NCBI GenBank assembly: GCA_000991245.1
Contig: LBRD01000005.1
Coordinates: forward strand, 10,944-74,943
Length of the DNA: 64,000 nt
Source: Parcubacteria group bacterium GW2011_GWC1_36_108
GTDB taxonomy: Bacteria > Patescibacteriota > Minisyncoccia > Moranbacterales > GWC2-37-73
Reading direction: 5' to 3'
Part shown: positions 5,854-62,546 of the stretch, piece after piece
How the letters are laid out: each line of letters opens with the position of its first letter
Numbering within the stretch: the stretch's first letter is position 1
Notes under the pieces: generated by a model
Told to the model about the DNA's origin: nothing
What the model saw: the letters and a program-made list of their open reading frames with translations, nothing else
The model's database searches: none
Translations under genes and position numbers: made by a program

Positions 5854-8800
5854 TTAGCAAGTTGTTCCAGTTACGATTCCACCTTCGATTGTGATAGTAC
5901 AAGTATCAGTAGTCAGTGGACCTTTTACTACAGTAAGCGTACTGCTAACTCCACTGTTTCCATCAACCTTAAATACTCCAGTAGCTGAAACATCTTTAAC
6001 ATCTGAAAGATCATTTCCATTAGCATCAATGTCTGCTGCCATATTCAATGTGTCAGCAAGGTTAAGTCCTCCGCTTCCAGTAAAGTCAGTTCCACTGTTT
6101 CCAAGGTTAGTCAAAACATTATCATGCATATCAATGTCACCTCTCATATCAGAATCCCCTGTTATATCAAAACCTCCCGCAGTAACAGTGAACAGACCAC
6201 CAGAAGTTATTGCTCCACCGAATAATCCGCTAGTAGCAATATTCAAACTTCCGCTACCAACAAGATTCCCGCTAAGAGTAAGCGCTGAAAGATTTGTATC
6301 TCCGTTTGATTGAATTTGCCAATCACCGTCTGTAATTGAAACATTAGCATTAGAATTACCAATATGAACTTGCGCAGCGTCTGCCCCTGCTGTTCCAAGA
6401 TTTATTGTTGAATCTGGTCCAGCAGTGTTGTCAGAATTTGTAAGACCAGTAAGGAAATTTACACTGTCAGCATAAATTGTTGACCAACGTGAACCGCTTG
6501 TTCCAAGTGATCCACCAGTAATGTCACCCTCGACGTGCAAATTAGCCTTGCCAGTTCCTGTATTTCTAATAAAAACATCAGAATCAACAGCATTGTTTGC
6601 AATATCAATATTCATGCTGTTGCTTGTTGAAAAGATGTTTCCACCTGAAAGACCTGCTGTTCCATCGCTAAGTAAGAAAGCTAACACGCTGCCTGTTGTA
6701 TTTACATTTATAGCGCTGTTTAAGTCGCTACCCACTATTGTTCCGTCTATAATTTTTGCAGAATCAACACTATCACCAGAAAGTTTTGCGTTTGTTACTG
6801 CACCATCAACAATAGAATTTGTTGTTATTGAATTATCAACCACAGCAGCTGCAAGAGTTGCTGTGCTAGCATTTCCTGTGATGTTAGCAGCTATATCAGA
6901 TGAAAAAGTTTTAATTCCATCTATTGTTTGATCTCCAATTGTGTAGACACCATTAGTAACAGTTTCAGCATTTCCTGTGATATTAGCAACTATGTCAGAT
7001 GAAAAAGTTTTAATTCCATCGATTGTCTGATCTCCGATTGTGTAAACACCATTGGTAACAGTTGCTGCATTTCCTGTAATATTAGCAACAACATCCTGCG
7101 TGAATGTATTGATGCCAGTCAAAGTGTTATTAGCAGCAGCATAAACTCCATCAGTAACGGTTGCAGCATTTCCTGTAATGTTAGCAACTATATCAGATGA
7201 AAAAGTCTTAATTCCATCTATTGTTTGATCTCCGATTGTGTAAACACCATTGGTAACAGTTGCTGCATTTCCAGTAATATTAGCAACGACATCCTGTGTG
7301 AATGTGTTGATACCAGTCAAGGTATTATTAGCAGCAGTATAAACTCCATCAGTAACGGTTGCGGCATTTCCTGTTATATTAGCAATAACATTTGAAGTAA
7401 ATGTTTTAATTCCATCGATTGTCTGATCTCCGATTGTGTAAACACCATTAGTAACTGTTCCAGCATTTCCACTCACGTTGCCAGTTACATCACCAACAAG
7501 ATCTCCAGTAAATTGAACTGCAGTTATAGTTGTAGTTGAATCGATATTACTTCCGGTTATTGTGTCATTTGCGATTTTTACACCAGTTACCGCTCCGTCA
7601 GCAATCTTTGCAGTAGTTACACTTTGATCTGCAAGCTTCACAGGAGTAATAGCACTATCTGCGATTTTTCCAGAAGTAACAGCAGCATCAAGAATTTTTG
7701 AAGTGATAACAGAATCATCTGCTAATTTTGAAGTTGTTACTGCACCATCAAGAATTTTTGCAGTAATCACGCTACCATCAGCTAATTTAATATCAGTAAT
7801 TGCACCGTCCTGGACTTTTGCTGTTGAGATTGAACCGTCAGCTAAATTAACAGCCACGATTGTTCCATCGGCAATTTTTCCAGAAGTAACAGCACCGTCA
7901 ATTATTTTTGCAGTCGAAACAGAATTGTCAGCTAATTTTATCGTAGTAATTATTCCATCTGCAAGATCAGCTACTTGAACCGTTCCGTCAACAATCTTTG
8001 CGCTAGTCACACTATCGTCTGCTAGCTTTACTGTAGTGATTGCACCATCAGCAATTTTTTCTGTTGTTATTGTTGCATCCAGGATTTTAACTGCTGTTAC
8101 TGAATCATCTGCTAATATTGCAGTTGTCACAGCCAGGTCTTGAATTTTTGAAGTACTAACTGATCCATCTGCCAATTTGATATTTGTAATAGCGCTGTCT
8201 TCAATTTTTGCTGTTGAAATTGAACCGTCAGCTAAATTAACAGCCACGATTGTTCCATCGGCAATTTTTCCAGAAGTAATTGTTCCATCTAAAATTTTTG
8301 AATTAACCACGCTACCGTCAGCCAATTTGCTTGTAAGAATAGCACCATCAGCGATTTGATTGCTTCCAACTCCACCATCAGCAATCCCAACAGTTCCGAC
8401 ACCAATAGTTATTCCTGTTCCAGCGCCGACAGTTAAGGTTACATTTCCAAGTGTTCCACCACCAATCAATCCGTCTCCAGCAGTAACACCAGTTATTGTT
8501 CCACCACCAGCAATTGAGTTAACAGTCCAAGAACCATCGTTATTATTAACAACTGTAACATTGTCTCCAGCAACAATTGATTTAACCATACTTCCGTCTG
8601 AAGCAAGTTTATTTCCTGTTATTGTTCCATCAGCAATCTGCAGCCCAGTTATTGAACCGATAATTTTTGAAGCGTCTAAGCTTGTTATCCATGCAGGGTC
8701 ATTATATGAGCCAGTTGTGTAAACACCATCAGTAACGGTGTCAGCATTTCCTGTAAGTGTTCCAACAACGCTGCCAATAAGATTACCCACGAATGAACCA

Positions 8801-9654
8801 GCAGTAACTGTTCCAGTTGTTGTGACATCTCCGCTGCTTATAACGGTCACGCCATCAGTAAAAGAAGCTGCTGTAACAGCGCCTGTAGTGTTGATAGTAA
8901 TATCTGAAGCTAATTTTGAACCCGTGATTTCATTGTCGCCAATTTTAGCGGCAGTTACCACGCCGTCTGCCAATTTTGCAGTTACAATAGCTCCGTCAGC
9001 AATTTTTATTGTTGTCACAGCGCCATCAGCCAATTTTCCATTCGTTACTGCGCCATCAACGATCTTTGCGGTCACAATTGCATCATCTGCAATTTTAACT
9101 CCCGTAACAACTCCGTCAGCAATCTTTGCTGTTGTCACGCTGCCATCAGCCAATTTAACATCAGTTATTGCACCATCAACAATTTTTGCTGTAGTCACGC
9201 TATCATCAGCCAATTTTAAAGTCACAATTGCACCATCAGCAATTTTACCAGCAGTGATTGAGCCATTTGCCAAAGAAACGCCAGCAATTGCACCATTAGC
9301 CAATTTGGCAGAAGTGATTGCACCATTTTTGATGTCTCTTGCTTTAATCGAATCTCGCAAATTTAATTTTGAATATCGTATGCCAGCATTATTTGCAATA
9401 TCCTTATTTTTTAATCGACGTGAAATGTCTACTACATATTGAACACCATTTTTTTCAGCAACCTTTATCACGCTCAATATTTTTTCAGTTCTTGTTTTAG
9501 CATTAACACCATAAAAACCTGCTCCTAAAATAAAAACAACCATAACCAAAACAGTTACGATTTTAACTTTCTTTGCATTTTTCTTCAAAACGTCAGAAAC
9601 AACCCTTCCCTTTTCTAACACTTCCTGCCCAAAAGCTTTTTTACTCATACTCAT
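5854..9654 (-). CDS. giant repetitive cell-surface protein (N-terminal membrane anchor; dozens of ~9-10-aa [KL]ADG[AS]VT[TS]AKI beta-helix-like repeats plus 33/66-aa repeats)
   Basis: 1266 aa ORF; TM segment VTVLVMVVFILGAGFYGV; extreme Thr/Gly/Ala/Val/Ile repeat composition; DNA tandem repeats of 99 and 198 bp. Confidence 0.75.
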   Translation of the reverse strand: MSMSKKAFGQEVLEKGRVVSDVLKKNAKKVKIVTVLVMVVFILGAGFYGVNAKTRTEKILSVIKVAEKNGVQYVVDISRRLKNKDIANNAGIRYSKLNLRDSIKARDIKNGAITSAKLANGAIAGVSLANGSITAGKIADGAIVTLKLADDSVTTAKIVDGAITDVKLADGSVTTAKIADGVVTGVKIADDAIVTAKIVDGAVTNGKLADGAVTTIKIADGAIVTAKLADGVVTAAKIGDNEITGSKLASDITINTTGAVTAASFTDGVTVISSGDVTTTGTVTAGSFVGNLIGSVVGTLTGNADTVTDGVYTTGSYNDPAWITSLDASKIIGSITGLQIADGTITGNKLASDGSMVKSIVAGDNVTVVNNNDGSWTVNSIAGGGTITGVTAGDGLIGGGTLGNVTLTVGAGTGITIGVGTVGIADGGVGSNQIADGAILTSKLADGSVVNSKILDGTITSGKIADGTIVAVNLADGSISTAKIEDSAITNIKLADGSVSTSKIQDLAVTTAILADDSVTAVKILDATITTEKIADGAITTVKLADDSVTSAKIVDGTVQVADLADGIITTIKLADNSVSTAKIIDGAVTSGKIADGTIVAVNLADGSISTAKVQDGAITDIKLADGSVITAKILDGAVTTSKLADDSVITSKILDAAVTSGKIADSAITPVKLADQSVTTAKIADGAVTGVKIANDTITGSNIDSTTTITAVQFTGDLVGDVTGNVSGNAGTVTNGVYTIGDQTIDGIKTFTSNVIANITGNAATVTDGVYTAANNTLTGINTFTQDVVANITGNAATVTNGVYTIGDQTIDGIKTFSSDIVANITGNAATVTDGVYAAANNTLTGINTFTQDVVANITGNAATVTNGVYTIGDQTIDGIKTFSSDIVANITGNAETVTNGVYTIGDQTIDGIKTFSSDIAANITGNASTATLAAAVVDNSITTNSIVDGAVTNAKLSGDSVDSAKIIDGTIVGSDLNSAINVNTTGSVLAFLLSDGTAGLSGGNIFSTSNSMNIDIANNAVDSDVFIRNTGTGKANLHVEGDITGGSLGTSGSRWSTIYADSVNFLTGLTNSDNTAGPDSTINLGTAGADAAQVHIGNSNANVSITDGDWQIQSNGDTNLSALTLSGNLVGSGSLNIATSGLFGGAITSGGLFTVTAGGFDITGDSDMRGDIDMHDNVLTNLGNSGTDFTGSGGLNLADTLNMAADIDANGNDLSDVKDVSATGVFKVDGNSGVSSTLTVVKGPLTTDTCTITIEGGIVTGTTC
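6880..7480 (-). repeat. in-frame 99/198-bp coding tandem repeats inside the surface-protein gene
   Basis: gtgtaaacaccattggtaacagttgctgcatttcc recurs at 7040, 7238 and 7436 (198-bp period); protein unit NGVYTIGDQTIDGIKTF...ITGNAATVT. Confidence 0.6.
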
Positions 9655-12127: not shown

Positions 12128-12736
12128 TTAATTAGGGATTGCTGGAAGATTACCTGGCAGTCCAGCGCCTGCTGGCAAACTAACATTACTCAATGATTCA
12201 AAAGTTTTTTTCATAATTTCACATTGATCTTCAAACACAACATTTGAAGGAATGTTGAAATCCACATCGCCTGCAGGAACACAACTTGATTTTTCATCAC
12301 TATTTTCAATCTCCTCTTCAATATTTGGAACAGCATCGGTTATTAAATTTTGTTGTTGTTCGGGAAGATTTGTTTTCAAACTTTCCAAACAAGAAGTTGC
12401 CATTTTGAATCCTTTTGTTTCTCCTTCCACCCAAAAATATGTTGTTTCTCCGTCAAAAATAACATTTTCTTTTTTCTTTTCAACATCAGAAACTGCTTTA
12501 AATTTTTTCCCTTGGACATATGCCACTGAGACTTCCCCGTCTTTTGAAGTTGAAGTACATTTCATTTTCGAGCCCAAGCCAATTGCTTCCTTGATGGAAT
12601 TTACAACTCCACCATTTTCAGTCGGCGCGCTTTTTTCTGCTGGCTGCACAGGAGTTTGAGTTTCTTTTTGACTTCCACATCCTGAAAAAACAAGTGCCGA
12701 GCAAACAACCACCGCTGACAAAAATATTTTTTTCAT
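12128..12736 (-). CDS. hypothetical secreted lipoprotein
   Basis: Signal peptide plus lipobox (LVFSGCGSQ). Confidence 0.65.
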   Translation of the reverse strand: MKKIFLSAVVVCSALVFSGCGSQKETQTPVQPAEKSAPTENGGVVNSIKEAIGLGSKMKCTSTSKDGEVSVAYVQGKKFKAVSDVEKKKENVIFDGETTYFWVEGETKGFKMATSCLESLKTNLPEQQQNLITDAVPNIEEEIENSDEKSSCVPAGDVDFNIPSNVVFEDQCEIMKKTFESLSNVSLPAGAGLPGNLPAIPN

Positions 12737-12738
12737 TT

Positions 12739-12883
12739 ACCCAATTAAATAAGATTTGGGTCTAACTTTTTGGCAGAACCAACTTATTCTTGTTTAAAAT
12801 TTAATATTAATTAATATATCCATTCAATACACTCAAATCTTAGTTTTAAATTTTTAATAAAATTTAAAACTATTTAACAGGGT
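12739..12883 (-). repeat. E-element, long form (E1): ~145-bp palindromic MITE-like leader element with nested stems, ending 3 nt before the lipoprotein ATG
   Basis: Terminal arms cccaattaaata...tatttaacaggg; inner complementary pair aagatttggg/ctcaaatctt; homologous to 43839-43986. Confidence 0.6.
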
Positions 12884-12907
12884 ATTTTTTATATAAATTA
12901 TTATTAA

Positions 12908-12954
12908 CATAATTATACCACAAACAAAGAGACTGACAAAATCAGTTTGTTTGT
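12908..12954 (-). promoter_or_regulatory. extended -10 promoter (TGTGGTATAAT) preceded by a hairpin, driving the E1-leader/lipoprotein transcript
   Basis: Minus strand reads caaacaaactgattttgtcagtctctttgtttgTGgTATAATtatg. The same module occurs at 52721-52770. Confidence 0.45.
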
Positions 12955-13069: not shown

Positions 13070-13098
13070 ATTGACTTTTGGCTAGTTTTGGAGTATAC
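13070..13098 (+). promoter_or_regulatory. near-consensus sigma70 promoter for the 13192 gene
   Basis: TTGACT-17 nt-TATACT. Confidence 0.55.
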
Positions 13099-13191
13099 TA
13101 TTAGGTTAGTGGTAAAATCCAAAATAGTAGCACCTTGAAAACATAGGCATTTTATGCCAATCAAATATCCCACGAGGAAGGAGAAAAAACC

Positions 13192-16903: not shown

Positions 16904-17146
16904 ATTTTTATAACCCCACAAATCTACAAATCTTTTACGAATATACAAATTAAATTCGTTTTTAAAATATTTGCAAAATTATAGGTTAAATTAATTATTG
17001 CTTATTATTTTTTGTTATATGTTACATGTTATATGTTTTATGTTATACTTATATTAGAGCTTGATACATCGCTATCTGCTTCGCCCTACGGGATATTTAA
17101 CTTATGCCCGTATGGGCTTTTTTATTTATAAAGTTTTCTTCAACCA

Positions 17147-22358: not shown

Positions 22359-22814
22359 CAGCTTATTAGGCTTTAGCTTATTAGCTTTTTAGAAAATGCG
22401 AAAATGCATTCGTTAGCTTATTAAGAAATACAACAGCATGATAAATTCATATAAAGATCTCATTGTTTGGCAGAGATCAATGGAGCTTGTTGTTGAAATT
22501 TATAAAGTTACTGAAGAATTTCCAATAGCGGAGTTGTATGGTATCATATCCCAAATGCGCAGAGCTGCGGTCTCGATTCCTAGCAATATAGCAGAAGGAA
22601 GAAAAAGAAGTACGAGAAAAGATTTCAGACAATTTTTAATTATAGCGTACGCCAGCGCTTCTGAATTGGAAACGCAAATTGAAATATCAAAACGCTTAAA
22701 TTTCATTGAAGTTGACAAATATACAAAAACTGATGCACTATTACTTGAGACAATAAAAATGCTAAACAAAATGATTTCCTCCCTAAAAAGCTAACGCCTA
22801 ATAAGCTAAAAAAT
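22359..22814 (+). repeat. F-element copy F1: imperfect 19-bp inverted repeat (cagcttattaggctttagc / gctaacgcctaataagcta) enclosing a four-helix-bundle ORF and abutting the cysS ATG
   Basis: Same arms as the ORF-less hairpins at 24758-24850 and 41521-41600. Confidence 0.55.
22438..22794 (+). CDS. four-helix-bundle protein (23S rRNA intervening-sequence protein family, short variant)
   Basis: 118 aa; IPSNIAEGRKRSTRKDFRQFLIIAYASASELETQIEIS. Confidence 0.8.
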   Translation: MINSYKDLIVWQRSMELVVEIYKVTEEFPIAELYGIISQMRRAAVSIPSNIAEGRKRSTRKDFRQFLIIAYASASELETQIEISKRLNFIEVDKYTKTDALLLETIKMLNKMISSLKS

Positions 22815-24245
22815 ATGTTAAGTCTATACAATACACTATCTAAAACCAAGCAGGAATTCAAGTCATTAAATCCCGGTAAAGTCGGGATGTATACTTGTGG
22901 ACCAACTGTATACAGTTATTTACACATTGGAAATATTCGAGCATATCTATTGTCAGACACCGTGCGAAGATATTTAGAATATATCGGATATGAAGTACGC
23001 CTGATTAAAAATATCACCGATGTTGGACATCTGACCGATGATGACGTTGCTCAAGGAGATTCAGGAGAAGACAAGATGGTTAAAGCTGCCGAGCGTGAGA
23101 AAAAAACTCCCGAAGAAATTGCCAGATTTTATGAAGAATATTTCAAACAAACCGAGAAGGAATTAAACATTATTCCTGCGCATTTTTTTCCACGCGCCAC
23201 TGCGCATGTTCCGCAAATGATTAAGATCATTGAAGGTCTCATTGAAAAAGGATACGCCTATGAAAAAAATGGTAACGTTTTTTTTGATGTCACAAAATTT
23301 GAGGATTACGGAAAACTTTCTGGCAACACCTTGGAAAATTTAAAAATAGGAGCAAGAATAGAAGAACATCCTGACAAAAAAAATGCTTGGGATTTTGCAC
23401 TTTGGATCAAAGCTCCAAAAGAGCATGCGATGAAATGGGAATCTCCTTGGTCAGTTGGATATCCTGGTTGGCATATTGAATGCTCCGCTATGAGCACAGA
23501 ATACCTTGGCAATACAATTGATATTCATACTGGCGGCGAAGATAACATTTTTCCTCATCAAGAAGCTGAAATTGCGCAAACAGAATGTTACACTGGTCAA
23601 AAATTTGTAAATTTTTGGGTTCATACTCGTCACCTACTAATAGATGGCAAAAAAATGAGCAAATCAAAAGGCAATTTGTTCACGCTTGAAGACATCAAAG
23701 AAAAAGGATTTTCTGCAATGGATCTGCGTTTACTGTTTCTCTCTTCTCATTATCGCAGTCAAACAAATTTCTCCTGGGAAGCTCTTGAGCAAGCACATAA
23801 AAATATTCAGAGAATTAATGATTTTGTATTAAATATTGAAGCAATCGCCTCAAGGGATTTAGTCTCACCAAAAACAATCGACACAAAAGCTGTTGTAGAA
23901 AAATTTGAAGCTGCGATGGATGATGATCTCAACACCCCCCTAGCATTAAGTATTTTTTATGGATTTATTTCTGATTGCAACAAACTTCTTGCAATAAACC
24001 ACATAGACAGCAAAAGTGCGCATAGCATTTTAACACTTTGGAAAAAAATAAATTCTGTTTTTGGATTTATACTTTCCGGTCAAGCAGAGATTCCAGAAGA
24101 AATTAAACTCTTAGTCAAGCAGCGCGAAGAGGCTAGAAACGGAAAAGATTTCAAAAAATCGGACGACCTTCGCGCCCTCATCGAAAAACATGGTTTTATT
24201 TTGGAAGATACTAAGGATGGGCAAAAAATTAGACTAGCTAGCTAG
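22815..24245 (+). CDS. cysS: cysteine--tRNA ligase
   Basis: HIGH (LHIGNIRAY), KMSKS, CGPT and zinc-binding motifs. Confidence 0.93.
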   Translation: MLSLYNTLSKTKQEFKSLNPGKVGMYTCGPTVYSYLHIGNIRAYLLSDTVRRYLEYIGYEVRLIKNITDVGHLTDDDVAQGDSGEDKMVKAAEREKKTPEEIARFYEEYFKQTEKELNIIPAHFFPRATAHVPQMIKIIEGLIEKGYAYEKNGNVFFDVTKFEDYGKLSGNTLENLKIGARIEEHPDKKNAWDFALWIKAPKEHAMKWESPWSVGYPGWHIECSAMSTEYLGNTIDIHTGGEDNIFPHQEAEIAQTECYTGQKFVNFWVHTRHLLIDGKKMSKSKGNLFTLEDIKEKGFSAMDLRLLFLSSHYRSQTNFSWEALEQAHKNIQRINDFVLNIEAIASRDLVSPKTIDTKAVVEKFEAAMDDDLNTPLALSIFYGFISDCNKLLAINHIDSKSAHSILTLWKKINSVFGFILSGQAEIPEEIKLLVKQREEARNGKDFKKSDDLRALIEKHGFILEDTKDGQKIRLAS

Positions 24246-24310
24246 GTACTAGGTTTTAGGTTCTAGGTTTTAGATATTGGGTTCTAGGTTCTGGGTTTTA
24301 GGTGTTAGGA
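24245..24310. repeat. 7-bp tandem repeat tract (TAGGTTN)x~9
   Basis: ctaggttttaggttctaggttttagatattgggttctaggttctgggttttaggtgttagga. Confidence 0.6.
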
Positions 24311-24338
24311 AATGCAAGATACTATTTTAGACAAAAAG

Positions 24339-24757: not shown

Positions 24758-24850
24758 ACAGCTTATCAGCTTCTTAGGCATTAGCTTTTTAGAAACCTGA
24801 TAAGATATCTTTTTTCTAAAAAGCTAAGAAGCTAAAAGCCTAACGCCTAC
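24758..24850 (+). repeat. F-element copy F2: long imperfect hairpin in the dnaB leader with no ORF in its loop
   Basis: cagcttatcagcttcttaggcattagctttttagaaa - cctgataagatatcttt - tttctaaaaagctaagaagctaaaagcctaacgcctacc, then ATG 6 nt later. Confidence 0.55.
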
Positions 24851-24855
24851 CCCTT

Positions 24856-26250
24856 ATGGCTAAAGAATGGAAAGACTACAAACCAAAGCAGGCTCCGGCG
24901 CAAAATTATGATCCGCTGCGCACGCCACCACATAACAATGAGGCTGAAATGTCTATTTTGGGTTCTTTGATGTTGGAAAAAGATGCAGTTATCAAAATTG
25001 CTGATCTTTTAAAAGTTGGTGATTTTTATAAAGACATTCACAATCAGATTTATGAAGCAATGCTGGAACTTTATGAGCAGAGAGAACCTTTGGATGTTTT
25101 GAGTATTTCCAACAAGCTGGATGAAAAAAAACAATTGGAACAAATTGGCGGTTCAAGTTATTTGGCTTCCTTAGTTGGAACAGTTCCATCAGCATCCCAC
25201 ATTGTACATTATGCTAAAGTTGTTCAGAAAAAAGCATTGTTGCGCAGACTTATCAATGCTGCCAGTGAAATTATTGAAGCTGGATTCCGCGAAGGTGATG
25301 ACGTAGAAAAAATTCTCGATGAAGCTGAACAAAAACTTTTTGCTGTTTCTCAAAAATATATAAAGCAGGATTTCTTGCCAATCAAATCAATTTTGGAAGC
25401 TGCCTTTAATCGTATTGATGAGCTTCATCGCGATGGCAACAAGTTCCGCGGAATTCCAACCGGCTTTGCTGATCTTGATAATGTTCTGGCTGGCCTGCAA
25501 AAATCTGATCTTTTGATTCTTGCTGCCCGACCTTCAGTTGGAAAAACATCACTAGCACTCGACATCGCACGTCACGTGGCGGTCAGAGAAAATGCAGCAG
25601 TAGCGATGTTCTCTTTGGAAATGTCAGCCGATCAACTTGTGGATCGTATGCTTGCCGCTGAAGCCAATGTTGATTTGTGGCGACTTCGAACTGGGAGACT
25701 CAACAGTGAAGGCGAGAACAATGACTTTCAACGAATTGGCGAAGCAATGGGTATTCTTTCTGAAGCAAAATTATTCATCGATGATACTGCCAGCGCCAAC
25801 ATTATGGAAATGCGCACAATGGCACGTCGTCTTCAAGCTGATAACAACCTCGGACTTATTATTATCGATTACTTGCAATTGATGGAAGGACGCGGCGGAG
25901 ACAATCGCGTGCAGGAAATTTCTGAAATTTCTCGCGGACTAAAAAATTTGGCTCGTGAACTTAACATTCCAATCATCGCACTTTCGCAGTTATCCCGCGC
26001 CGTTGAAGCTCGCTCTCCACAAATTCCAAAACTTTCTGATCTTCGAGAGTCTGGTTCGATTGAGCAGGATGCTGATGTGGTTCTTTTCCTATACCGCGAA
26101 GATCGCGAAAAACCAGACACCCCAAACAAAGGTATTGTTAAAATCATCATCGCCAAGCATCGTAATGGTCCAGTCGGCGAAGTCAGCGCATTCTTCCAAG
26201 AAAACAGCGCGAGTTTTAGGTCACTCGAGAAAATACACCAACAAAATTAA
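24856..26250 (+). CDS. dnaB: replicative DNA helicase DnaB
   Basis: N-terminal DnaB domain; Walker A (ARPSVGKTSLALDIARHVA); RecA-like C-terminal domain. Confidence 0.93.
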   Translation: MAKEWKDYKPKQAPAQNYDPLRTPPHNNEAEMSILGSLMLEKDAVIKIADLLKVGDFYKDIHNQIYEAMLELYEQREPLDVLSISNKLDEKKQLEQIGGSSYLASLVGTVPSASHIVHYAKVVQKKALLRRLINAASEIIEAGFREGDDVEKILDEAEQKLFAVSQKYIKQDFLPIKSILEAAFNRIDELHRDGNKFRGIPTGFADLDNVLAGLQKSDLLILAARPSVGKTSLALDIARHVAVRENAAVAMFSLEMSADQLVDRMLAAEANVDLWRLRTGRLNSEGENNDFQRIGEAMGILSEAKLFIDDTASANIMEMRTMARRLQADNNLGLIIIDYLQLMEGRGGDNRVQEISEISRGLKNLARELNIPIIALSQLSRAVEARSPQIPKLSDLRESGSIEQDADVVLFLYREDREKPDTPNKGIVKIIIAKHRNGPVGEVSAFFQENSASFRSLEKIHQQN

Positions 26251-30625: not shown

Positions 30626-30662
30626 GGTAGGTGTTAGGTTTTAGTTTTTAGGTTCTAGGCTC
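30626..30662. repeat. 7-bp tandem repeat tract (TAGGNNN)x5 ending 3 nt before the alaS ATG
   Basis: taggtgttaggttttagtttttaggttctaggctctg; mRNA-sense reads ...cctaacacctacccatATG. Confidence 0.55.
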
Positions 30663-30675
30663 TGTATCAAAAAGT

Positions 30676-32451: not shown

Positions 32452-32709
32452 TCAATTAGCTTTTTTGATTTGGGATATTAATTCCGATTTTTCTTCTCGT
32501 GATAATTTTTTGATACGATTTTCCTCTTTTGATGCAGTAGAGCGATTTTTGAATTTTTTTGCATAAACAAGTTCAACTGGCCGCCTACCACTCGTATATT
32601 TTGCGCCCAACTTTAAATTATTATGCTCATCAACTCTTCTTTTCAAATCTGTCGTAATGCCAGTATAAAAAGTTTTGTCAGAGCATTTCAAAATATATAT
32701 TTGCCACAT
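32452..32709 (-). CDS. GIY-YIG nuclease family protein (UPF0213/YhbQ-like)
   Basis: YILKCSDKTFYTGITTDLKRRVDEHN...GAKYTSGRRPVELVY. Confidence 0.75.
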   Translation of the reverse strand: MWQIYILKCSDKTFYTGITTDLKRRVDEHNNLKLGAKYTSGRRPVELVYAKKFKNRSTASKEENRIKKLSREEKSELISQIKKAN

Positions 32710-32898
32710 TTACTTGGAATATTTCGCCTTAAAATTATCCAGCTCCTCTTTGGGCACATTCTCCTCAATTCTTCTGACAATTTGATGAGCTCGAGTTGCA
32801 GAAATTTTACATTCTTTTGCAATATCACGAAAAAACTTACCTTCAACATGCATCTGATATATTTTTTTCCTTTCCTTTGTAAAATTATACGCTCCCAT
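32710..32898 (-). CDS. small HTH (sigma-70 region-4-like) DNA-binding protein
   Basis: FRDIAKECKISATRAHQIVRRIE; start placed at MGAYNF to avoid overlapping the helicase gene. Confidence 0.5.
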   Translation of the reverse strand: MGAYNFTKERKKIYQMHVEGKFFRDIAKECKISATRAHQIVRRIEENVPKEELDNFKAKYSK

Positions 32899-32918
32899 AA
32901 TTTTATTTTTTTTAATTT

Positions 32919-34232
32919 TTACACACAATTTTTTAAAAATGTTTTTTGGAGTTCCCGCTTTTTCAAAATTTTCATCTTGAGAACATATGTATCATTGTCA
33001 CGAGAAAGTTTCTCTAGAATTTTATTAAATTCATATACTTTTGGATTTACTTCCAAGGCTACTTTATTAATTCCTAATAATTTTATACCATCCAATGTCC
33101 TAACTCGCGAGAGTGCAACGTATCCCATTCCGTATTCAAAAGATTTAGACAAATCCATTTCAACCGCATCCAAGGTCATTCCCTGACTTTTATGCACTGT
33201 GATTGCCCAAGCAAGTCTTAGTGGTATTTGTGTTATGGTGGCAAGCGCTGATTCATTTTCTTCGATTGACCATTTCTCAGGATTTGCAATTATCGTTTTA
33301 CCAGAAAAAGTTTTTACTATCGGTGTACCAGCATGATCAAAATTAGTCACCATTCCCAATGTTCCATTAACATAACCTTTTTCAAAATTATTTTTCACAA
33401 ACATAACCACCGCACCTTTCTTGAGAAATAATGTTTCCGGAGCAAGACATCCCTTTTTTACCGCAGCTGCCACAAATTCATTTCCCTTGGAACTCATCTC
33501 AAAAATTCTAGCTTCTTCTTTTATCTTCTTAAGTTCCAAATTATTAATAGCATCAACATTTATATTATGTGTAAATAACTTGGTTGGCGTAACACTATTT
33601 TTTATATTTTTATTTTGACGTGACAAAATTAAATCTAAGGTTTTCTGATTGCAAGACTTGTTTCTGATGTCGTTTAAAATTTTAAGCATCTGTCCATCTT
33701 CTTGTCTATGTTGTTCTTCCAAATAACAAATTTTTGGAGCCATTTCTTGCCAAGCCGCAGATTCAATAACAAAGCGAGACTCTTCTCCAGATTTTGCCAC
33801 TGGTGGCAATTGAAAAAAATCTCCACACAAAATAACCTGCAATCCACCAAATGGCGAAAATGGCTCTTTAAATTTTTTGCAAATTGCATTAATAATATCG
33901 AGTTGATGCGCATGAAGCATAGACACTTCATCAATAATAAGCACGCTCGTGGTTGCAAAGCGTTGTTTATGATAATGTCTTTTTTTGAGCTTAGTATAAT
34001 CCTCTTCCGTGAATGTATCACTGATCCCCATTCCGGACCAAGAATGAATAGTTTGACCATTCATATGGGTCGCTGCAATTCCGGTTGAAGCAGTAATCGC
34101 CACACCAATACTATTCTCTTTTAGATATTCAATATATTGCTTTAACAAATATGTCTTGCCAGAGCCAGCAGGTCCCGTCAAAAAAACGTTATGTCCAAGC
34201 TTTAAAATATCGAGTGCTGTTTTTTGTTTCAT
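32919..34232 (-). CDS. PIF1/RecD-like ATP-dependent DNA helicase (AAA_30)
   Basis: Walker A FLTGPAGSGKT; LIIDEVSM; CGDFFQLPPV; C-terminal SH3-like fold. Confidence 0.8.
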   Translation of the reverse strand: MKQKTALDILKLGHNVFLTGPAGSGKTYLLKQYIEYLKENSIGVAITASTGIAATHMNGQTIHSWSGMGISDTFTEEDYTKLKKRHYHKQRFATTSVLIIDEVSMLHAHQLDIINAICKKFKEPFSPFGGLQVILCGDFFQLPPVAKSGEESRFVIESAAWQEMAPKICYLEEQHRQEDGQMLKILNDIRNKSCNQKTLDLILSRQNKNIKNSVTPTKLFTHNINVDAINNLELKKIKEEARIFEMSSKGNEFVAAAVKKGCLAPETLFLKKGAVVMFVKNNFEKGYVNGTLGMVTNFDHAGTPIVKTFSGKTIIANPEKWSIEENESALATITQIPLRLAWAITVHKSQGMTLDAVEMDLSKSFEYGMGYVALSRVRTLDGIKLLGINKVALEVNPKVYEFNKILEKLSRDNDTYVLKMKILKKRELQKTFLKNCV

Positions 34233-41513: not shown

Positions 41514-41520
41514 AAAAATA

Positions 41521-41600
41521 GCTTCTCAGCCTTTAGCTTCTTAGCTTCTTAGAAAATTCAGGACACCTGAAAAGCTAAAAAGCTAACGCCTAAAAAGCTG
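41521..41600 (-). repeat. F-element copy F3 in the pheT leader
   Basis: mRNA-sense: cagctttttaggcgttagctttttagctttt-caggtgtcctga-attttctaagaagctaagaagctaaaggctgagaagctattttt-ATG. Confidence 0.5.
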
Positions 41601-42632
41601 TTAAAATTGTTTAATAAATCTTAAATCTCCAGAGTGAAAAAGTCTAACATCGTCTATTTTATATTTCATCATCGCCAATCGTTCCAAGCCAAATCCCCAG
41701 GCAAATCCCTGATATTTATTTCTTGGATAGCCCACAGCTTCAAAAACATTTTGGTTCACAATTCCAGCTCCACCAAGCTCCAGCCAGCCAGCCCATTTGC
41801 ATGATGAACAACCTTTGCCACCACACACCAAGCAATTAATATCAAATTCAAAACTTGGTTCTGTAAATGGAAAATAACTTGGACGAAGTCTAATCTCAAC
41901 ATCAGCCTTGAAGAATTTTGAGAAAAACTGTTCAGCCACAAATTTCAAATTTCCCACCGTGATGTCTTCGCCAACCATTAAGGCTTCGAATTGATGAAAA
42001 GTGTGATCATGAGTTGTGTCAGTTGATTCGCGACGAAAAACTCGCCCCGGAGCAATAATACGAAATGGTGGCGTGTGCTTTTCCATAAAGCGAATCTGCA
42101 CATCAGAAGTTTGCGTGCGCATCACGACTTTTTCATCTTTGCCTTCATCTTTTAGCCAGAAGGTATCTTGCATATCGCGAGCTGGATGATCCTTAGGGAT
42201 ATTAAGAGCATCAAAATTATAAAATTCTGTTTCCACTTCTGGCCCATCTGCAATTTCAAATCCCATTGAATTAAAAATATCTTCTATTTCATATTGAATT
42301 TTGCTCAGCGGATGAAGATGACCTCGCTGCAATTTTTTAGCCGGCATCGTCACATCAATTTTTTCCGCCGCAAAATCAAAACTTTTTTCCTTAAGTTCTT
42401 TTTCTTTTTCAGCAAGAACGCTTTCAACTTCAATTTTTGTTGCATTTGCAATTTGTCCCACTGTTTTTCGCTCCTGCTCAGTCAAGTCCTTAAGACTCTT
42501 GAGAATGTTTGTAAATTCACTTTTTCTTCCCAAAAATTTAATTCTCAAGTCATTAAGTTGGGCCAAGGATTCTACGGCGAGAATTTCAGCCAAAGCATCT
42601 TCTTTAATTTTGTTTATTTTTTCTTCGAGCAT
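41601..42632 (-). CDS. pheS: phenylalanine--tRNA ligase alpha subunit
   Basis: Class-II motifs 1-3 (FPFTEPSFEFD, GFGLERLAMMKY). Confidence 0.92.
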   Translation of the reverse strand: MLEEKINKIKEDALAEILAVESLAQLNDLRIKFLGRKSEFTNILKSLKDLTEQERKTVGQIANATKIEVESVLAEKEKELKEKSFDFAAEKIDVTMPAKKLQRGHLHPLSKIQYEIEDIFNSMGFEIADGPEVETEFYNFDALNIPKDHPARDMQDTFWLKDEGKDEKVVMRTQTSDVQIRFMEKHTPPFRIIAPGRVFRRESTDTTHDHTFHQFEALMVGEDITVGNLKFVAEQFFSKFFKADVEIRLRPSYFPFTEPSFEFDINCLVCGGKGCSSCKWAGWLELGGAGIVNQNVFEAVGYPRNKYQGFAWGFGLERLAMMKYKIDDVRLFHSGDLRFIKQF

Positions 42633-42633
42633 A

Positions 42634-43836
42634 TTATTTCTTGAAAATTATTTTTACAAAGCCCAGTTTTCCTATTTTCAAAACCTTGCCATCAAATTCT
42701 TTCGTGACCAGTATTTGTGGATCAAGCAATTTTTCATCATCAACTGACACACCGCCTTGCTCAATTTTGCGACGAGCATCTCCCATACTAGAAGCATTTT
42801 CTGATTTCACAACAAGTTCTGACAATTTCATTTCTTCAGAAACTTCAAACTCGGCAATTTCAGTTGGGATTTCTTTTTTGGAAAATGTGTTAATAAAATA
42901 TTCTCTTGCACTTCTTGCTAATTCTTCTCCGTGATATATTGCTGTGATTTCTCCAGCCAACCTAAGTTTTGCATCGCGAGGATTCAATATTTCCTCCTTC
43001 ATCTCTTTTTCAATTTGAGCAACATCTTCCATTGGAATGCGAGTGCAATGAACAAAATATTTTCCGATAAGTTCATCTCCCATACTCATCACTTTGCCAA
43101 ACATTGAATTGGCATCGTCAGTCAGGTTAATAGTATTTCCCCACGAAGAACTCATCTTGCGTCCGTCAAGACCCTCAATCAAATCAGTCATCATAACATC
43201 TTGAGGTTTTTGCTTGTATTTTTTTTGCATCTCGCGACCAGCCAAAAGATTGAAACGTTGATCAGTTCCACCGAGTTCTAAATCGGCTTTTAATACCACA
43301 CTGTCATAACCTTGCATCAAAGGATACAAGAGCTCGCGGAGCGATATGCGTGTCCCCTTTTCTAATCTTTTTTTAATATTATCCCGCGCAATAAATTCAG
43401 CTAAAGAAAAAATATCAGCTTGCTCAGAAATTTCATTGTATGTTAGTTTTCCGAGCCAATCAGAATTTTTAACAACTTCAACTTTACTCATATCCAAAAT
43501 TTTTCCAGCTTGCTCGAAATATGTTTCCATATTTTTTTCAACAACCTCACGCTCAAGCATTGGCCTCTCACTTTCCTTGTCAGAAGTGTCCCCAATCACA
43601 CCAGTAAAGTCGCCAATCAAAAAAACAATTTGATGTCCCAGCTCTTGCAAATCTCTGAGCTTCAAAAGAGGCACAGCTCGACCCAAGTGAATATTTGGAC
43701 TAGTAGGATCAGTGCCGAATTTAATACGCAATTTCTCATCACTAAGAAGCCTCTTTTTAAGATTTTCACAATCAATAACTTCATTAACTCCACGAGTCAA
43801 AATTTCTTCAATTACTTTTTCTTGTTGTTTTTCCAT
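42634..43836 (-). CDS. tyrS: tyrosine--tRNA ligase (with C-terminal S4 domain)
   Basis: GTDPTSPNIHLGRAVPLLKL (HIGH region matching TyrS GFDPTADSLHLGHLVPLL); KMSSS; C-terminal S4 GDARRKIEQGGVSVD. Confidence 0.85.
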   Translation of the reverse strand: MEKQQEKVIEEILTRGVNEVIDCENLKKRLLSDEKLRIKFGTDPTSPNIHLGRAVPLLKLRDLQELGHQIVFLIGDFTGVIGDTSDKESERPMLEREVVEKNMETYFEQAGKILDMSKVEVVKNSDWLGKLTYNEISEQADIFSLAEFIARDNIKKRLEKGTRISLRELLYPLMQGYDSVVLKADLELGGTDQRFNLLAGREMQKKYKQKPQDVMMTDLIEGLDGRKMSSSWGNTINLTDDANSMFGKVMSMGDELIGKYFVHCTRIPMEDVAQIEKEMKEEILNPRDAKLRLAGEITAIYHGEELARSAREYFINTFSKKEIPTEIAEFEVSEEMKLSELVVKSENASSMGDARRKIEQGGVSVDDEKLLDPQILVTKEFDGKVLKIGKLGFVKIIFKK

Positions 43837-43838
43837 TT

Positions 43839-43986
43839 ACCCTGTTAAATAAGATTTGGGCTTTTTAAAAAAGAAAACCCACCTATTAAAGTTAATTTTT
43901 TAATTTTATTCACAACATTATTTAATTCAAGAACCCAAATCTTAATTTTAAATTTTTTAAGGAAATTTAAAATTATTTAACAGGGT
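43839..43986 (-). repeat. E-element, long form (E2), ending 3 nt before the tyrS ATG
   Basis: Perfect 12-bp TIR ccctgttaaata...tatttaacaggg; inner stem aagatttggg/cccaaatctt; ~125-bp AT-rich interior. Confidence 0.6.
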
Positions 43987-44017
43987 GAATAATCTTAAAT
44001 TTTCATTACTAATATAG

Positions 44018-44050
44018 ATTTATAATACCAATTTACACAACTTTTTGCAA
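44018..44050 (-). promoter_or_regulatory. sigma70-type promoter for the E2-leader/tyrS transcript
   Basis: Minus strand: TTGCAA-17 nt-TATTAT. Includes the shared 17-mer tataaatctatattagt also found at 24653-24669. Confidence 0.45.
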
Positions 44051-44091: not shown

Positions 44092-44120
44092 TTGACTAAC
44101 TTATCAAAAAGATGTATAAT
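44092..44120 (+). promoter_or_regulatory. consensus sigma70 promoter for the GGDEF gene
   Basis: TTGACT-17 nt-TATAAT; a 9-bp perfect inverted repeat tgtgggaaaattgtttcccaca lies in the leader. Confidence 0.55.
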
Positions 44121-45340: not shown

Positions 45341-45407
45341 ATTGTTACAAATTTTTAATTTTTAATAAAAACCTGGATTCCCGCCTCCGCGGGAATGACA
45401 AGATGAA

Positions 45408-52643: not shown

Positions 52644-52651
52644 TTTTCTTG

Positions 52652-52690
52652 CCCCGTTAAATTGCGGTAATCCGCACTATTTAACTGGGG
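52652..52690 (-). repeat. E-element, short form (E3), hairpin ending 8 nt before the ATG
   Basis: gccccgttaaattgCggtaatccGcactatttaactgggg. Confidence 0.6.
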
Positions 52691-52770: not shown

Positions 52771-52946
52771 TTTAATACAAAGTTAATTGAATCTGTTTTA
52801 TATCATTCCCGTGAAAACGGGAATCCAGGGCTAGGCATAACTCTGGATCCCCAGTCAAGCTGAGGATGACAAGATGCCATTATAATTAAGTTAACCAAAC
52901 AAGGAATATTGCTTAATACTCTTACAATTGCGTAAGTTTTTATAAC

Positions 52947-58030: not shown

Positions 58031-58038
58031 ATTTCTTG

Positions 58039-58077
58039 CCCCGTTAAATTGTGGTAATCCACACTATTTAACTGGGG
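58039..58077 (-). repeat. E-element, short form (E4), ending 8 nt before the ATG
   Basis: gccccgttaaattgTggtaatccAcactatttaactgggg. It differs from E3 only by the paired C to T and G to A substitutions (plus A/T in the spacer). Confidence 0.6.
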
Positions 58078-61501: not shown

Positions 61502-61710
61502 ATATTTTTAACCTTGTTACATTCCAAAAATTGGTAATGTTTAACCAGGTTGTATACAATTTTAAAATCTACGCTTCTAAACAGGCGTCGACCACATCCT
61601 GAATAGTTTGTTATTAATATACAATTAAAAATGCTTTTGCTTTCAAAACAAAAGACAGGTTTTAACCTGCCTTTATGTCTTATGCTTTTTCTATCCAAAC
61701 TATAAATTTA

Positions 61711-61840
61711 GGACTTACGCATTTTCTCAACTATTTCTTATTTGGCACGCTTTTGGATAAATACTCACTATCCAAAAGCTCAAGAGTCGCTGTCGCCAAC
61801 TACTGGCCAAAAAAGAAATGATTCGAAATGCGTAACTTCT
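61711..61840 (-). repeat. R-element copy R3 (reverse orientation; >90% identical to R1)
   Basis: Reverse complement reads agaagttacgcatttcgaatcatttcttttttggccagtagttggcgacagcgactcttgagcttttggatagtgagtatttatccaaaagcgtgccaaataagaaatagttgagaaaatgcgtaagtcc. Confidence 0.6.
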
Positions 61841-61847
61841 GATATTA

Positions 61848-62546
61848 TTAGTTCGAAATTAGCTTATTTAACCATCCAAACAAACTAATTCCTTCTTGTG
61901 CATTCAAAAGTAATGTCTCAATTTCTTGATTAGCTTGTTCTAAAACTTTAACTTGCTGTGTTAATTGCTGTTGATCTCCTTCGTTTGAAAGTTGTGTCTT
62001 AAGCTGATTAAGTTGACGAATTTGTTCCTTGTTTTGATTTAATGTTTCTTGGGACGTTTTTATCTCACCGTAGTTTGGTCCAACAAAAAATTTAGCAACG
62101 CCTCCACGACTCTCTATCTTTTCAATGCTTTTTTCAAGTTTAACTTGATTTTGATTCTGATTCTGAGCAATAACTTTTACCTGTTGTCCAATTCCTCCAG
62201 TTCTGTCAGCTAATTGAATCATTGCCTGAACTGCATTAGCAACCATACTTCTTTTTTGTGCTGCATTAGCGCCAGCATTTGAGTTTCCATTACCTGCCGA
62301 ATTTACAGCACCACCCATTGTTGGTTGAGCAGCATTTTTATCTTGAGTTTGAACTTGTGTAGTTTCTCCTTGATTCATCACTTTGTTTTGTTCCTGGGTT
62401 GGAGAAGTTTTTTCAACTTGACCAGTTGGAGCCTGTACTACTGTTGGCTCAACTTTTGCTTCTTGTTTTGGAGCTGTGTTTGCTGCTTGAGCCTGAAGAA
62501 CAAATCCAAACATCAGCAGCGATGCTGCGAACATTGTTTTTTTCAT
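61848..62546 (-). CDS. secreted Q/N/T-rich coiled-coil hypothetical protein
   Basis: Signal peptide MKKTMFAASLLMFGFVLQAQA; low-complexity mature region. Confidence 0.5.
   Translation of the reverse strand: MKKTMFAASLLMFGFVLQAQAANTAPKQEAKVEPTVVQAPTGQVEKTSPTQEQNKVMNQGETTQVQTQDKNAAQPTMGGAVNSAGNGNSNAGANAAQKRSMVANAVQAMIQLADRTGGIGQQVKVIAQNQNQNQVKLEKSIEKIESRGGVAKFFVGPNYGEIKTSQETLNQNKEQIRQLNQLKTQLSNEGDQQQLTQQVKVLEQANQEIETLLLNAQEGISLFGWLNKLISN

Follow-up and report, generated by a model that had tools for sequence, protein, structure and literature searches.

The 64-kb stretch of DNA analysed here (the window; contig LBRD01000005.1, 37% G+C) comes from a genome of Candidatus Moranbacteria, in the Patescibacteria or Candidate Phyla Radiation (CPR). 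It carries two related elements, E1 and E2, each devoid of an open reading frame (ORF) and each placed in the 5' leader of a gene read from the minus strand. E2 (43837..43990) precedes tyrS (42634..43836), and E1 (12737..12885) precedes a gene for a 202-residue lipoprotein-like protein (12128..12736). At both loci only 3 nt, TAA, lie between the element and the ATG of the host gene, an adjacency noted in the first-pass annotation of this DNA. The four promoters listed there were also recovered by a promoter scan. On the minus strand these are TTGCAA-17-TATTAT with TG for tyrS (44022..44050) and TTGTCA-16-TATAAT with TG for the lipoprotein-like gene (12912..12939), and on the plus strand TTGACT-17-TATACT (13071-13099) and TTGACT-17-TATAAT (44092-44120). 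Since E1 and E2 are inserted in the sense orientation in the short leaders of the host genes, they should be co-transcribed from the host promoters. Most genes of the window have no Shine-Dalgarno sequence and their leaders are A/T-rich. The tyrosyl-tRNA synthetase (TyrRS) of the window is 100% identical to that of GW2011_GWC2_37_73, and its DnaK is 99.4% identical to that of UBA12142, a metagenome-assembled genome (MAG) of the same species.

Structure of the long and short elements

E1 and E2 are described in the orientation of the genes downstream, for which the minus strand is the sense strand; all coordinates of their parts refer to that strand. E2 was delimited by its sequence, its fold and its alignment to the ends of the full-length elements described below, and consists of ATTCA, the 5' arm, the P2 hairpin, the P3 stem with its apex, the 3' arm and TAA, followed by the ATG of tyrS. 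The arms, CCCTGTTAAATA (43974..43985) and TATTTAACAGGG (43840..43851), form a perfect 12-bp pair. P2 (43944..43973) is an AU-rich hairpin, AATTTTAAATTT..AAATTTAAAATT, and P3 with its apex occupies 43851..43943, where AAGATTTGGG pairs with CCCAAATCTT (43934-43943 with 43851-43860) around a variable apex of approximately 72 nt. E1 has the same parts with a degenerate 5' terminus (ATA for ATTCA). Its arms, recognized by sequence at 12871..12882 and 12740..12751 (the latter TATTTAATTGGG), pair with one U.U and one G.U. Its P2 hairpin (12843..12870) is closed by a G-C pair in place of the A-U pair of E2, a compensatory change, and within P3 and its apex (12751..12841) the inner stem, 12832-12841 with 12751-12760, contains one mismatch. 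Both elements thus have in common the P3 stem AAGATTTGRG/CCCAAATCTT, the 3' arm TATTTAAC/TNGGG and the TAA ahead of the host ATG. The two elements are 66% identical, and for each of them copies from other genomes are no more distant than the other element is, so they are not recent duplicates of each other.

Two short elements of 39 nt lie on the same strand. S1 (52646..52690, the short form itself at 52652-52690) reads CCCCAGTTAAATAGTGCGGATTACCGCAATTTAACGGGG with a CAAG tail and lies 9 nt upstream of the ATG of a 172-residue gene, and S2 (58033..58077, short form 58039-58077) lies upstream of a 261-residue gene. Their inner stems covary, GCGG/CCGC in S1 and GTGG/CCAC in S2, and identical or nearly identical copies of S1 were found in other Moranbacteria. 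The 18-mer of arm and tail occurs four times in the window at no more than 3 mismatches against 0.11 expected, and 8 of 10 arm matches in the window belong to E1, E2, S1 and S2.

The long forms fold as three-way junctions, with minimum free energies on the sense strand of -32.6 and -36.2 kcal/mol for the two elements (z -4.05 and -4.53); the opposite strand folds equally well (z -5.0 and -5.5). The corresponding z values of S1 and S2 are -5.1 and -4.3. A search for further copies of the E1/E2 type (E-type copies) recovered 28 of 120-152 nt, of which 21 with an AU-rich P2 were aligned. In this alignment the structure of four helices, P1 to P4, leaves 92.6% of cells paired and includes 15 pairs with a compensatory change; none of 500 shuffles reached any of the measures, which also exceed those of all slid controls. 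In helix P4, U.G is commoner than C.A. The ATTCA preceding the 5' arm is conserved across the E-type copies and mirrors the TAAAT that follows the 3' arm, so that the inverted termini extend to approximately 17 bp (ATTCACCC.. / ..GGGTAAAT). Among E-type copies the sense strand has a slight advantage in folding (19 versus 9, p = 0.03, a marginal difference), which is compatible with a strand-specific single-stranded DNA (ssDNA) substrate and with a transcribed RNA alike. For the short forms the two strands do not differ significantly in folding energy, and most loops have 3 nt, features that fit DNA hairpins better than RNA.

The anatomy proposed in the first-pass annotation was confirmed, with one correction: the arms of the short forms serve as terminal inverted repeats of E1 and E2, with the perfect pair in E2, and both long forms contain an inner complementary pair, here a 10-nt stem, around a variable loop. 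The AU-rich segment of approximately 30 nt is also present, not as the single strand that had been described but as a hairpin, P2, with compensatory changes.

A gene-bearing relative and a widespread hairpin family

A metagenome scan with the contiguous 3' strand of P3 and P1 (CAAATCTTATTTAAYNGGG) yielded more than 120 loci, a lower bound. Among the loci listed, 46-55 (depending on length window and filters) are elements of 265-290 nt, mostly 275-279 nt, that have the same arms and contain a single ORF of 84-86 residues, MYYTYVLQS..FYVGFTKDLKLRFEQH..RLKSYLTG*, also written MYYTYVLQS..DG.FYVGFTKDLKLRFEQHNKG.VESTKDRRPLKLIYYEACL..DA..REKYLKTYHGKMFLKKRLKSYLTG*. The product is a single-domain GIY-YIG nuclease, matching Pfam PF01541 over residues 1-71 (E 1e-15) and no other domain, and its nearest sequences in PDB are the UPF0213 proteins 1ZG2 (E 1e-6) and 1YWL (9e-5). 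The top homologues are 80-95% identical and come from several CPR classes; 108 of 120 close homologues end in KSYLTG. They belong to a large family, with more than 5,300 clusters at 90% identity (E <= 1e-8) and 6,693 at 50% clustering (E <= 0.001), and the only name given to the homologues by the source databases is 'GIY-YIG nuclease family protein'.

The gene does not merely lie between the arms. In the full-length element, whose termini read ..ATTCA-CCCTGTTAAATA ... TATTTAACAGGG-TAAAT.., the 5' strand of P3 consists of the codons for (L)RFE, and the 3' strand of P3 together with the 3' arm encodes LKSYLTG, after which comes the stop codon TAA. The P2 of AT-rich (CPR-type) full-length copies has AATTTTAAATTT as one strand and the DLKL codons as the other. 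The alignment of E1 and E2 to these AT-type elements covers three stretches, namely the initial 27 nt, AAAAATTTAAAATTAAGATTTGAG (codons for DLKLRFE) and the final 26 nt, and it contains two internal deletions that remove the ORF. The strands of the inner stems of E1 and E2 correspond to codons within DLKLRFE and LKSYLTG-stop: in E2 the P3 strands are those of (L)RFE and (L)KS(Y), the stretch of the 3' arm is the one that encodes YLTG and then TAA in the gene-bearing relatives, and P2 is that of the full-length AT-type elements without the codons for the approximately 22 N-terminal residues. Since both ends of the element are kept and the ORF has been lost through two internal deletions, E1 and E2 are best described as deletion derivatives that are non-autonomous. 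A gene-bearing partner with the same termini is the relation that defines a miniature inverted-repeat transposable element (MITE) and its autonomous counterpart. Hybrid forms were also found, in which a complete short element takes the place of the N-terminal half of the ORF (L134, L172 and L210).

Some other small GIY-YIG genes were noted. The sole GIY-YIG gene of the window (32452-32709, minus strand) encodes an 85-residue protein of the UPF0213 type (..LGAKYTSGRRP..); its ATG directly follows the TAA of a 72-residue ORF (32710-32928), so that TAAATG is read here as well. In a relative whose PheS is 64% identical, a full-length GIY-YIG element (L131, sense 275-563) lies between pheS and pheT and its stop codon adjoins the next ATG (TAGATG); the pheS-pheT spacer of the window has no element. 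In Moranbacteria GWF2_35_54 (L017 1935-2260) another small GIY-YIG gene, of approximately 290 nt, is inserted in the 5' part of a tRNA gene, with duplication of ttccGCGATAGCTC. The tRNA gene is intact in the relative UBA12141 (L057 345-460), and in both genomes it is preceded, at a distance of 11 nt, by a short hairpin element.

Beyond the gene-bearing elements, the arms CCCNGTTAAATA/ATTTAACNGGG and a GYAAR tail bound short hairpins in several phyla. A scan with the pattern CCCAGTTAAATA-N3-33-ATTTAACGGG, in one genome per species, found them in more than 117 stretches, again a lower bound. The sources of the matches listed are Desulfobacterales/Thermodesulfobacteriota, Cloacimonadota, Patescibacteria, Omnitrophota, Bdellovibrionales, Neomarinimicrobiota and others, and nearly all the matches listed are intergenic. 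With a relaxed pattern the arms were seen to covary, GTTAAAT, GTGAAAT, GTTAGAT, GTGGAAT and GTTGAAT each occurring with the complementary partner. The part between the arms can be as small as 4 nt or a branched structure exceeding 120 nt, some members measure only 28 nt, and a tail of 5-6 nt (GTAAA, GCAAG or GCAGG) is conserved 3' of the 3' arm and orients the hairpin. Within single genomes, E1, E2, S1 and S2 make four copies in the window, and UBA12142 has at least five short copies and at least one long copy.

Elements nested in one another were found at L112, L072, L020 and L110, and at L068 and L120 an element sits precisely in the loop of a different, NTS-like hairpin, with no duplication. 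Hairpins of the latter kind also occur in the window, at 45370-45398 and 52797-52826: (T)GTCATTCCCGCGGAGGCGGGAATCCAGG and ATCATTCCCGTGAAAACGGGAATCCAGG are nearly identical to the neisserial dRS3/NTS repeat (CGTCATTCCCGCGMAVGCGGGAATCYRG), and it is in the loop of such a dRS3/NTS-like hairpin that L068 and L120 have their short E-type element.

Rfam gave no match at gathering thresholds (the window plus 16 loci) and none of note at E <= 10 (E2 and S1), where the low-level matches were noise (CRISPR-DR21 at 17.9 bits and miRNA models). Rfam need not contain DNA repeat families such as Correia, ERIC, RUP and BOX. All-against-all clustering of the ORFs of the 117 loci listed revealed nothing common to more than 6 loci; the families common to a few of them were sugar-nucleotide enzymes, UvrA and ABC ATPases. 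No transposase family was enriched within 4 kb of the same loci, and a tblastn search with a provisional IS200 TnpA query had no match in approximately 800 kb of loci and the window (best E = 0.66). A literature search by sequence string returned unrelated primer matches only. In the viral collection IMG/VR the long-form pattern had no match, and the short pattern had one chance match and one genuine hairpin; the latter (CCCCAGTTAAATAGGCTCCGCATTTAACGGGGCAGGC, L006 6255-6285) is of the short form and lies in a contig of 59% G+C classed there as viral.

Insertion sites and start codons

Comparison of orthologous loci in related genomes revealed sites with and without the element. At the tyrS locus E2 is present in L001 and L002 (TyrRS 95% identical) and absent from L003 (TyrRS 92%), which reads '...ttgcaaaaagttgtgtaaattggtattataaatctatatttagcaataaaaattttATG' and in which the same promoter and leader run straight into the ATG; L004 (TyrRS 89%) likewise has no element. 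At the lipoprotein locus E1 is absent from L124 (69% amino acid identity) and also from L125, which carries an orthologue of 55%. L124 reads 'tgtgatatgattagtgtaataataatttaaataaaaattATG' where the window reads 'tgtggtataattatgttaataataatttatataaaaaata[E1]taaATG', and its extended -10 motif and leader are nearly base for base those of the window, running directly into the ATG. At both loci one boundary of the insert falls no more than a few bases from the 5' arm, and the other is the TAA that precedes the ATG. E1 and E2 are therefore insertions at both loci, which bears out the presence/absence polymorphism foreseen for a mobile element. The target-site duplication that might have accompanied it was not seen at the filled and empty pairs of the two loci or at the nested insertions (L068, L112, L072, L110), although one of 1-2 bp (AT) is not excluded.

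The position relative to the downstream gene is highly regular. In low-GC contigs an ORF starts no more than 15 nt downstream, in the sense orientation, in 17 of 18 E-type copies, and in 13 of the 18 the distance is exactly 3 nt, reading GGGTAAATG (also written GGGUAAAUG). The genes downstream of E-type copies (tyrS, lipoprotein-like, rmlC-like, secG) form no common regulon. The first-pass annotation had emphasized a layout common to both loci, in which the element lies between a minus-strand gene and a divergent accessory gene with its own promoter. This appears to be incidental, since no such partner was noted in four other copies whose flanks were examined and which lie upstream of rmlC-like, secG and tRNA genes or adjoin pheT. 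What is constant is the sense orientation 3-15 nt upstream of a start codon.

The dnaK leader differs between the window and UBA12142. In the latter a short-form hairpin precedes the ATG of dnaK by 12 nt (L026 2190-2240), and the window has in its place (16905-17010) an unrelated or degenerate segment of approximately 84 nt ending in GTGGGGT.

Other repeats of the window were also noted. Short degenerate tandem motifs (TAGGTTCTAGGTTTTAGG.., AGCTTMTTAGC..) occur at 22359-22395, 24243-24314, 24759-24860, 30628-30664 and 41519-41604; they lie directly upstream of many start codons in either orientation and may represent a feature of leaders or terminators that is characteristic of this genome. 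Near the ends of the window, approximately 60 kb apart, there are inverted repeats of 66-88 nt that are up to 99% complementary (1136-1284 and 1895-1982 versus 61703-61850). Each holds the palindrome GCTTTTGGATA..TATCCAAAAGC, and they are either a further family of repeats or mark the limits of a rearrangement. A 1,266-residue ORF (5854-9654, minus strand) made up of tandem repeats of 99 nt and 30/60 nt probably encodes a repetitive surface protein. No tRNA or tmRNA gene was found in the window.

Origin and spread of the elements

It is likely that E1 and E2 derive by internal deletion from a selfish element of approximately 280 bp, are non-autonomous and were inserted in the leaders of host genes. 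The full element is an 84-86-residue GIY-YIG gene between inverted arms, the coding sequence of which supplies strands of two internal stems, and its last codons (..LKSYLTG) and stop codon are the 3' arm. E1 and E2 have kept approximately 50 nt of the 5' end and approximately 26 nt of the clearly alignable 3' end and lost the ORF, and as single strands they still fold into the same three-way junction as the full element. Each would have entered its leader 3 nt ahead of the ATG, in the sense orientation, once the lineage had separated from close relatives with an uninterrupted leader. The 39-nt S1 and S2 represent the minimal hairpin of the same superfamily. Structure, homology to the gene-bearing form, insertion polymorphism, breadth of the family, nesting and the start-codon bias are direct observations. 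By analogy with the Ssn-NTS system, the hairpin may be the ssDNA recognition site of the encoded GIY-YIG nuclease, which may move or copy the gene-less elements in trans. Insertion in the sense orientation behind a host promoter would supply transcription, and a stop codon adjoining the host ATG (UAAAUG) may limit the harm to the host gene. More tentatively, and with a probability somewhat below even, these elements could stand for a mobile class whose sole protein is a GIY-YIG ssDNA nuclease of approximately 85 residues encoded within its own recognition hairpin. Its gene-less progeny would be mobilized in trans and, in Patescibacteria, directed to or kept only at sites directly 5' of start codons, riding host promoters.

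The closest known system is that of Ssn and NTS. SsnA of Neisseria meningitidis is a single-domain GIY-YIG protein of 94 residues that binds the NTS hairpin, which belongs to a subset of dRS3 repeats, and cuts only ssDNA beside it; homologues in many phyla are flanked by hairpin repeats that number hundreds of copies, and the authors remark on an architecture like that of an insertion sequence (IS) (Chenal et al., Nat Commun 2025, PMC11893778). In that paper mobility was not shown, and insertion polymorphism, nesting and deletion derivatives were not reported (PMC11893778). The likeness extends to the very small single-domain protein (84-86 residues here), a gene bracketed by hairpin-forming inverted repeats, many dispersed intergenic hairpins without a gene (here the arms around 46-55 ORFs and more than 117 gene-less hairpins), a repeat oriented by non-palindromic flanks, the IS-like architecture and the distribution across phyla. 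There are also differences. E1, E2, S1 and S2 are not matched by the SRM pattern HGTCWYN(0-2)YYVSBRHN(0-5)WNVSBRGN(0-2)RNCYNB (regular-expression search of both strands of the window). The gene lies here inside one split hairpin and not between two complete hairpins, and the stems as well as the 3' arm are made by its coding sequence. Among proteins of solved structure the element protein is nearest to those of UPF0213 (1ZG2), and the present family shows polymorphic insertions, nested copies and derivatives that arose by deletion. The elements appear to belong to a GIY-YIG/hairpin system akin to Ssn-NTS, a variant of a recently recognized kind, rather than to the Correia-type MITEs.

Several points weigh against the interpretation as deleted copies of a nuclease-driven element. 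No full-length arm-bounded GIY-YIG element was found in the window or in five 8-kb loci of UBA12142, and a cognate nuclease acting in trans in this genome is therefore only putative; the protein encoded by the GIY-YIG gene of the window shares 36% identity with that of the element, and no arms flank the gene. The pairing of the element protein with the element hairpin is proposed by analogy. The similarity of the E1/E2 apex to the 3' codons of the ORF is weak (z approximately 1.7, suggestive), although by eye the similarity to the last codons looks clearer in at least one other copy (L169 versus L134). Exact boundaries and a target motif cannot be fixed, approximately 5-10 additional nt differ between the filled and the empty tyrS site, and the divergence of E1 from E2 gives no sign of recent proliferation within this genome. 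Finally, gene-bearing copies adjoin start codons in only 12 of 55 cases, in contrast to the gene-less E-type copies, and this excess is not predicted by a model in which the latter are purely dead relics. Target preference, survival bias in tiny intergenic regions and exaptation as a leader module are all possible causes.

The last of these leads to the alternative that E1 and E2 act mainly in cis, as 5'-leader RNA for translation initiation of genes without a Shine-Dalgarno sequence: as a thermosensor, as an operator to which a protein binds or as a compact fold leaving the AUG region unobstructed, possibly exapted from a mobile element and hence compatible with a mobile origin. It would account for elements that are always in the sense orientation between promoter and ATG, for the difference in start-codon proximity between gene-less and gene-bearing copies, for the covariation of P2, P3 and P4 and the preference for U.G over C.A in P4, for the slight folding bias towards the sense strand and for the occurrence in a genome where most leaders of the window lack a Shine-Dalgarno sequence. 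We nevertheless regard it as unlikely: the downstream genes are unrelated, their orthologues in close relatives work without the element, Rfam has no match, the symmetry and mostly 3-nt loops of the short forms are what one would rather expect of DNA palindromes, outside Patescibacteria there is no link between these hairpins and start codons, and a stem whose end lies 3 nt from the AUG would be expected to impede, not aid, binding of the 30S subunit. A riboswitch or regulon was rejected because the downstream genes are unrelated, relatives lack the element and no Rfam match was found. Translational coupling to an upstream ORF was also rejected, as the frame ending in the TAA of E1 and E2 has no start codon and nothing consistent was seen in L066 and L085, and so was an internal promoter in the P3 apex, where the weak matches (9/12) are no better than expected in AT-rich DNA. 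Integron attC sites (RYYYAAC ... GTTRRRY) have the opposite polarity to the element, which reads GTTAAAT ... ATTTAAC on both strands.

The remaining alternatives concern the agent of mobility. Homing would reverse the order of events, the short hairpins being targets, a free-standing GIY-YIG homing gene having entered the loop and E1 and E2 being decayed products. The gene does lie exactly between the two halves of one hairpin, the hybrid forms would fit, and the small GIY-YIG gene in the tRNA gene of other Moranbacteria has a 14-nt duplication. Free-standing homing genes such as Seg and I-TevI resemble the element as mobile GIY-YIG genes next to or within host genes that are present or absent among relatives, but their enzymes have a DNA-binding domain and 2-3 times the length, and the genes have neither bounding inverted repeats nor MITE-like progeny. 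Homing leaves the dispersal and nesting of gene-less hairpins unexplained; one deletion architecture is common to E-type copies over many loci and genomes, which points to the spread of an already gene-less progenitor, and the empty sites of E1 and E2 hold no hairpin at all, against simple homing into existing hairpins. We therefore consider this explanation improbable. Still less credence can be given to a hairpin of the REP/RAYT type or one derived from IS200/IS605 (PATE), moved as single strands by a Y1 HUH transposase. The elements and the REP/BIME-RAYT and IS200/IS605-PATE systems have in common the single-strand hairpin logic, a G+C foot with one extrahelical base (a foot geometry resembling that of the subterminal hairpins of IS608), a conserved flank of 4-6 nt on one side, a high copy number of gene-less hairpins and the lack of duplication, and insertion into loops of other hairpins would also fit. 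The search for a Y1 transposase described above was negative (a lead only), the arms are conserved across phyla whereas REPs are normally specific to a species or genus, and the gene inside the arms encodes a nuclease of another superfamily. A classical MITE of the Correia, ERIC or RUP type, derived by deletion from an IS with a DDE transposase and moved by cut-and-paste of double-stranded DNA with target-site duplication, corresponds to the comparison put forward in the first-pass annotation, with BOX as a further member, and is hardly credible. In common with such non-autonomous elements, including those of Neisseria, the present ones do have inverted repeats (12-17 bp) at their termini, come in a long and a short class, lie in intergenic DNA beside promoters and gene starts and form a stable stem-loop when transcribed. 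However, no target-site duplication was seen at filled sites or nested insertions, members go down to 28 nt, no transposase family was enriched near the loci and no DDE partner is linked, and the sole gene found inside the arms is the GIY-YIG nuclease; the comparison is one of features. The more general reading of E1 and E2 as mobile palindromic elements was essentially right, given the empty sites, the dispersed family and the gene-bearing partner with the same termini.

How small hairpin repeats such as REP and dRS3/NTS multiply in bacterial genomes is an old question. The Ssn work of 2025 tied one such repeat to a tiny GIY-YIG ssDNA nuclease (PMC11893778). The family described here offers gene-bearing, gene-less and minimal hairpin copies with the same termini side by side, together with clean filled and empty sites in nearly identical genomes and nested insertions, so that spread driven by the nuclease becomes directly testable. 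The comparative evidence for mobility is unusually clear, and the placement at start codons is highly regular. In the streamlined Patescibacteria a selfish element is found within leaders of 25-30 nt of essential genes, with its stop codon adjoining the host start codon, and this placement bears on the tolerance of structured leaders by translation that does not depend on a Shine-Dalgarno sequence. Short, sequence-defined pairs of hairpin and nuclease could also serve as ssDNA tools. The family may show how hairpin repeats spread and, if the trans-mobilized class is real, it would provide a concrete mechanism of proliferation for Ssn-associated hairpin repeats such as the neisserial dRS3/NTS.

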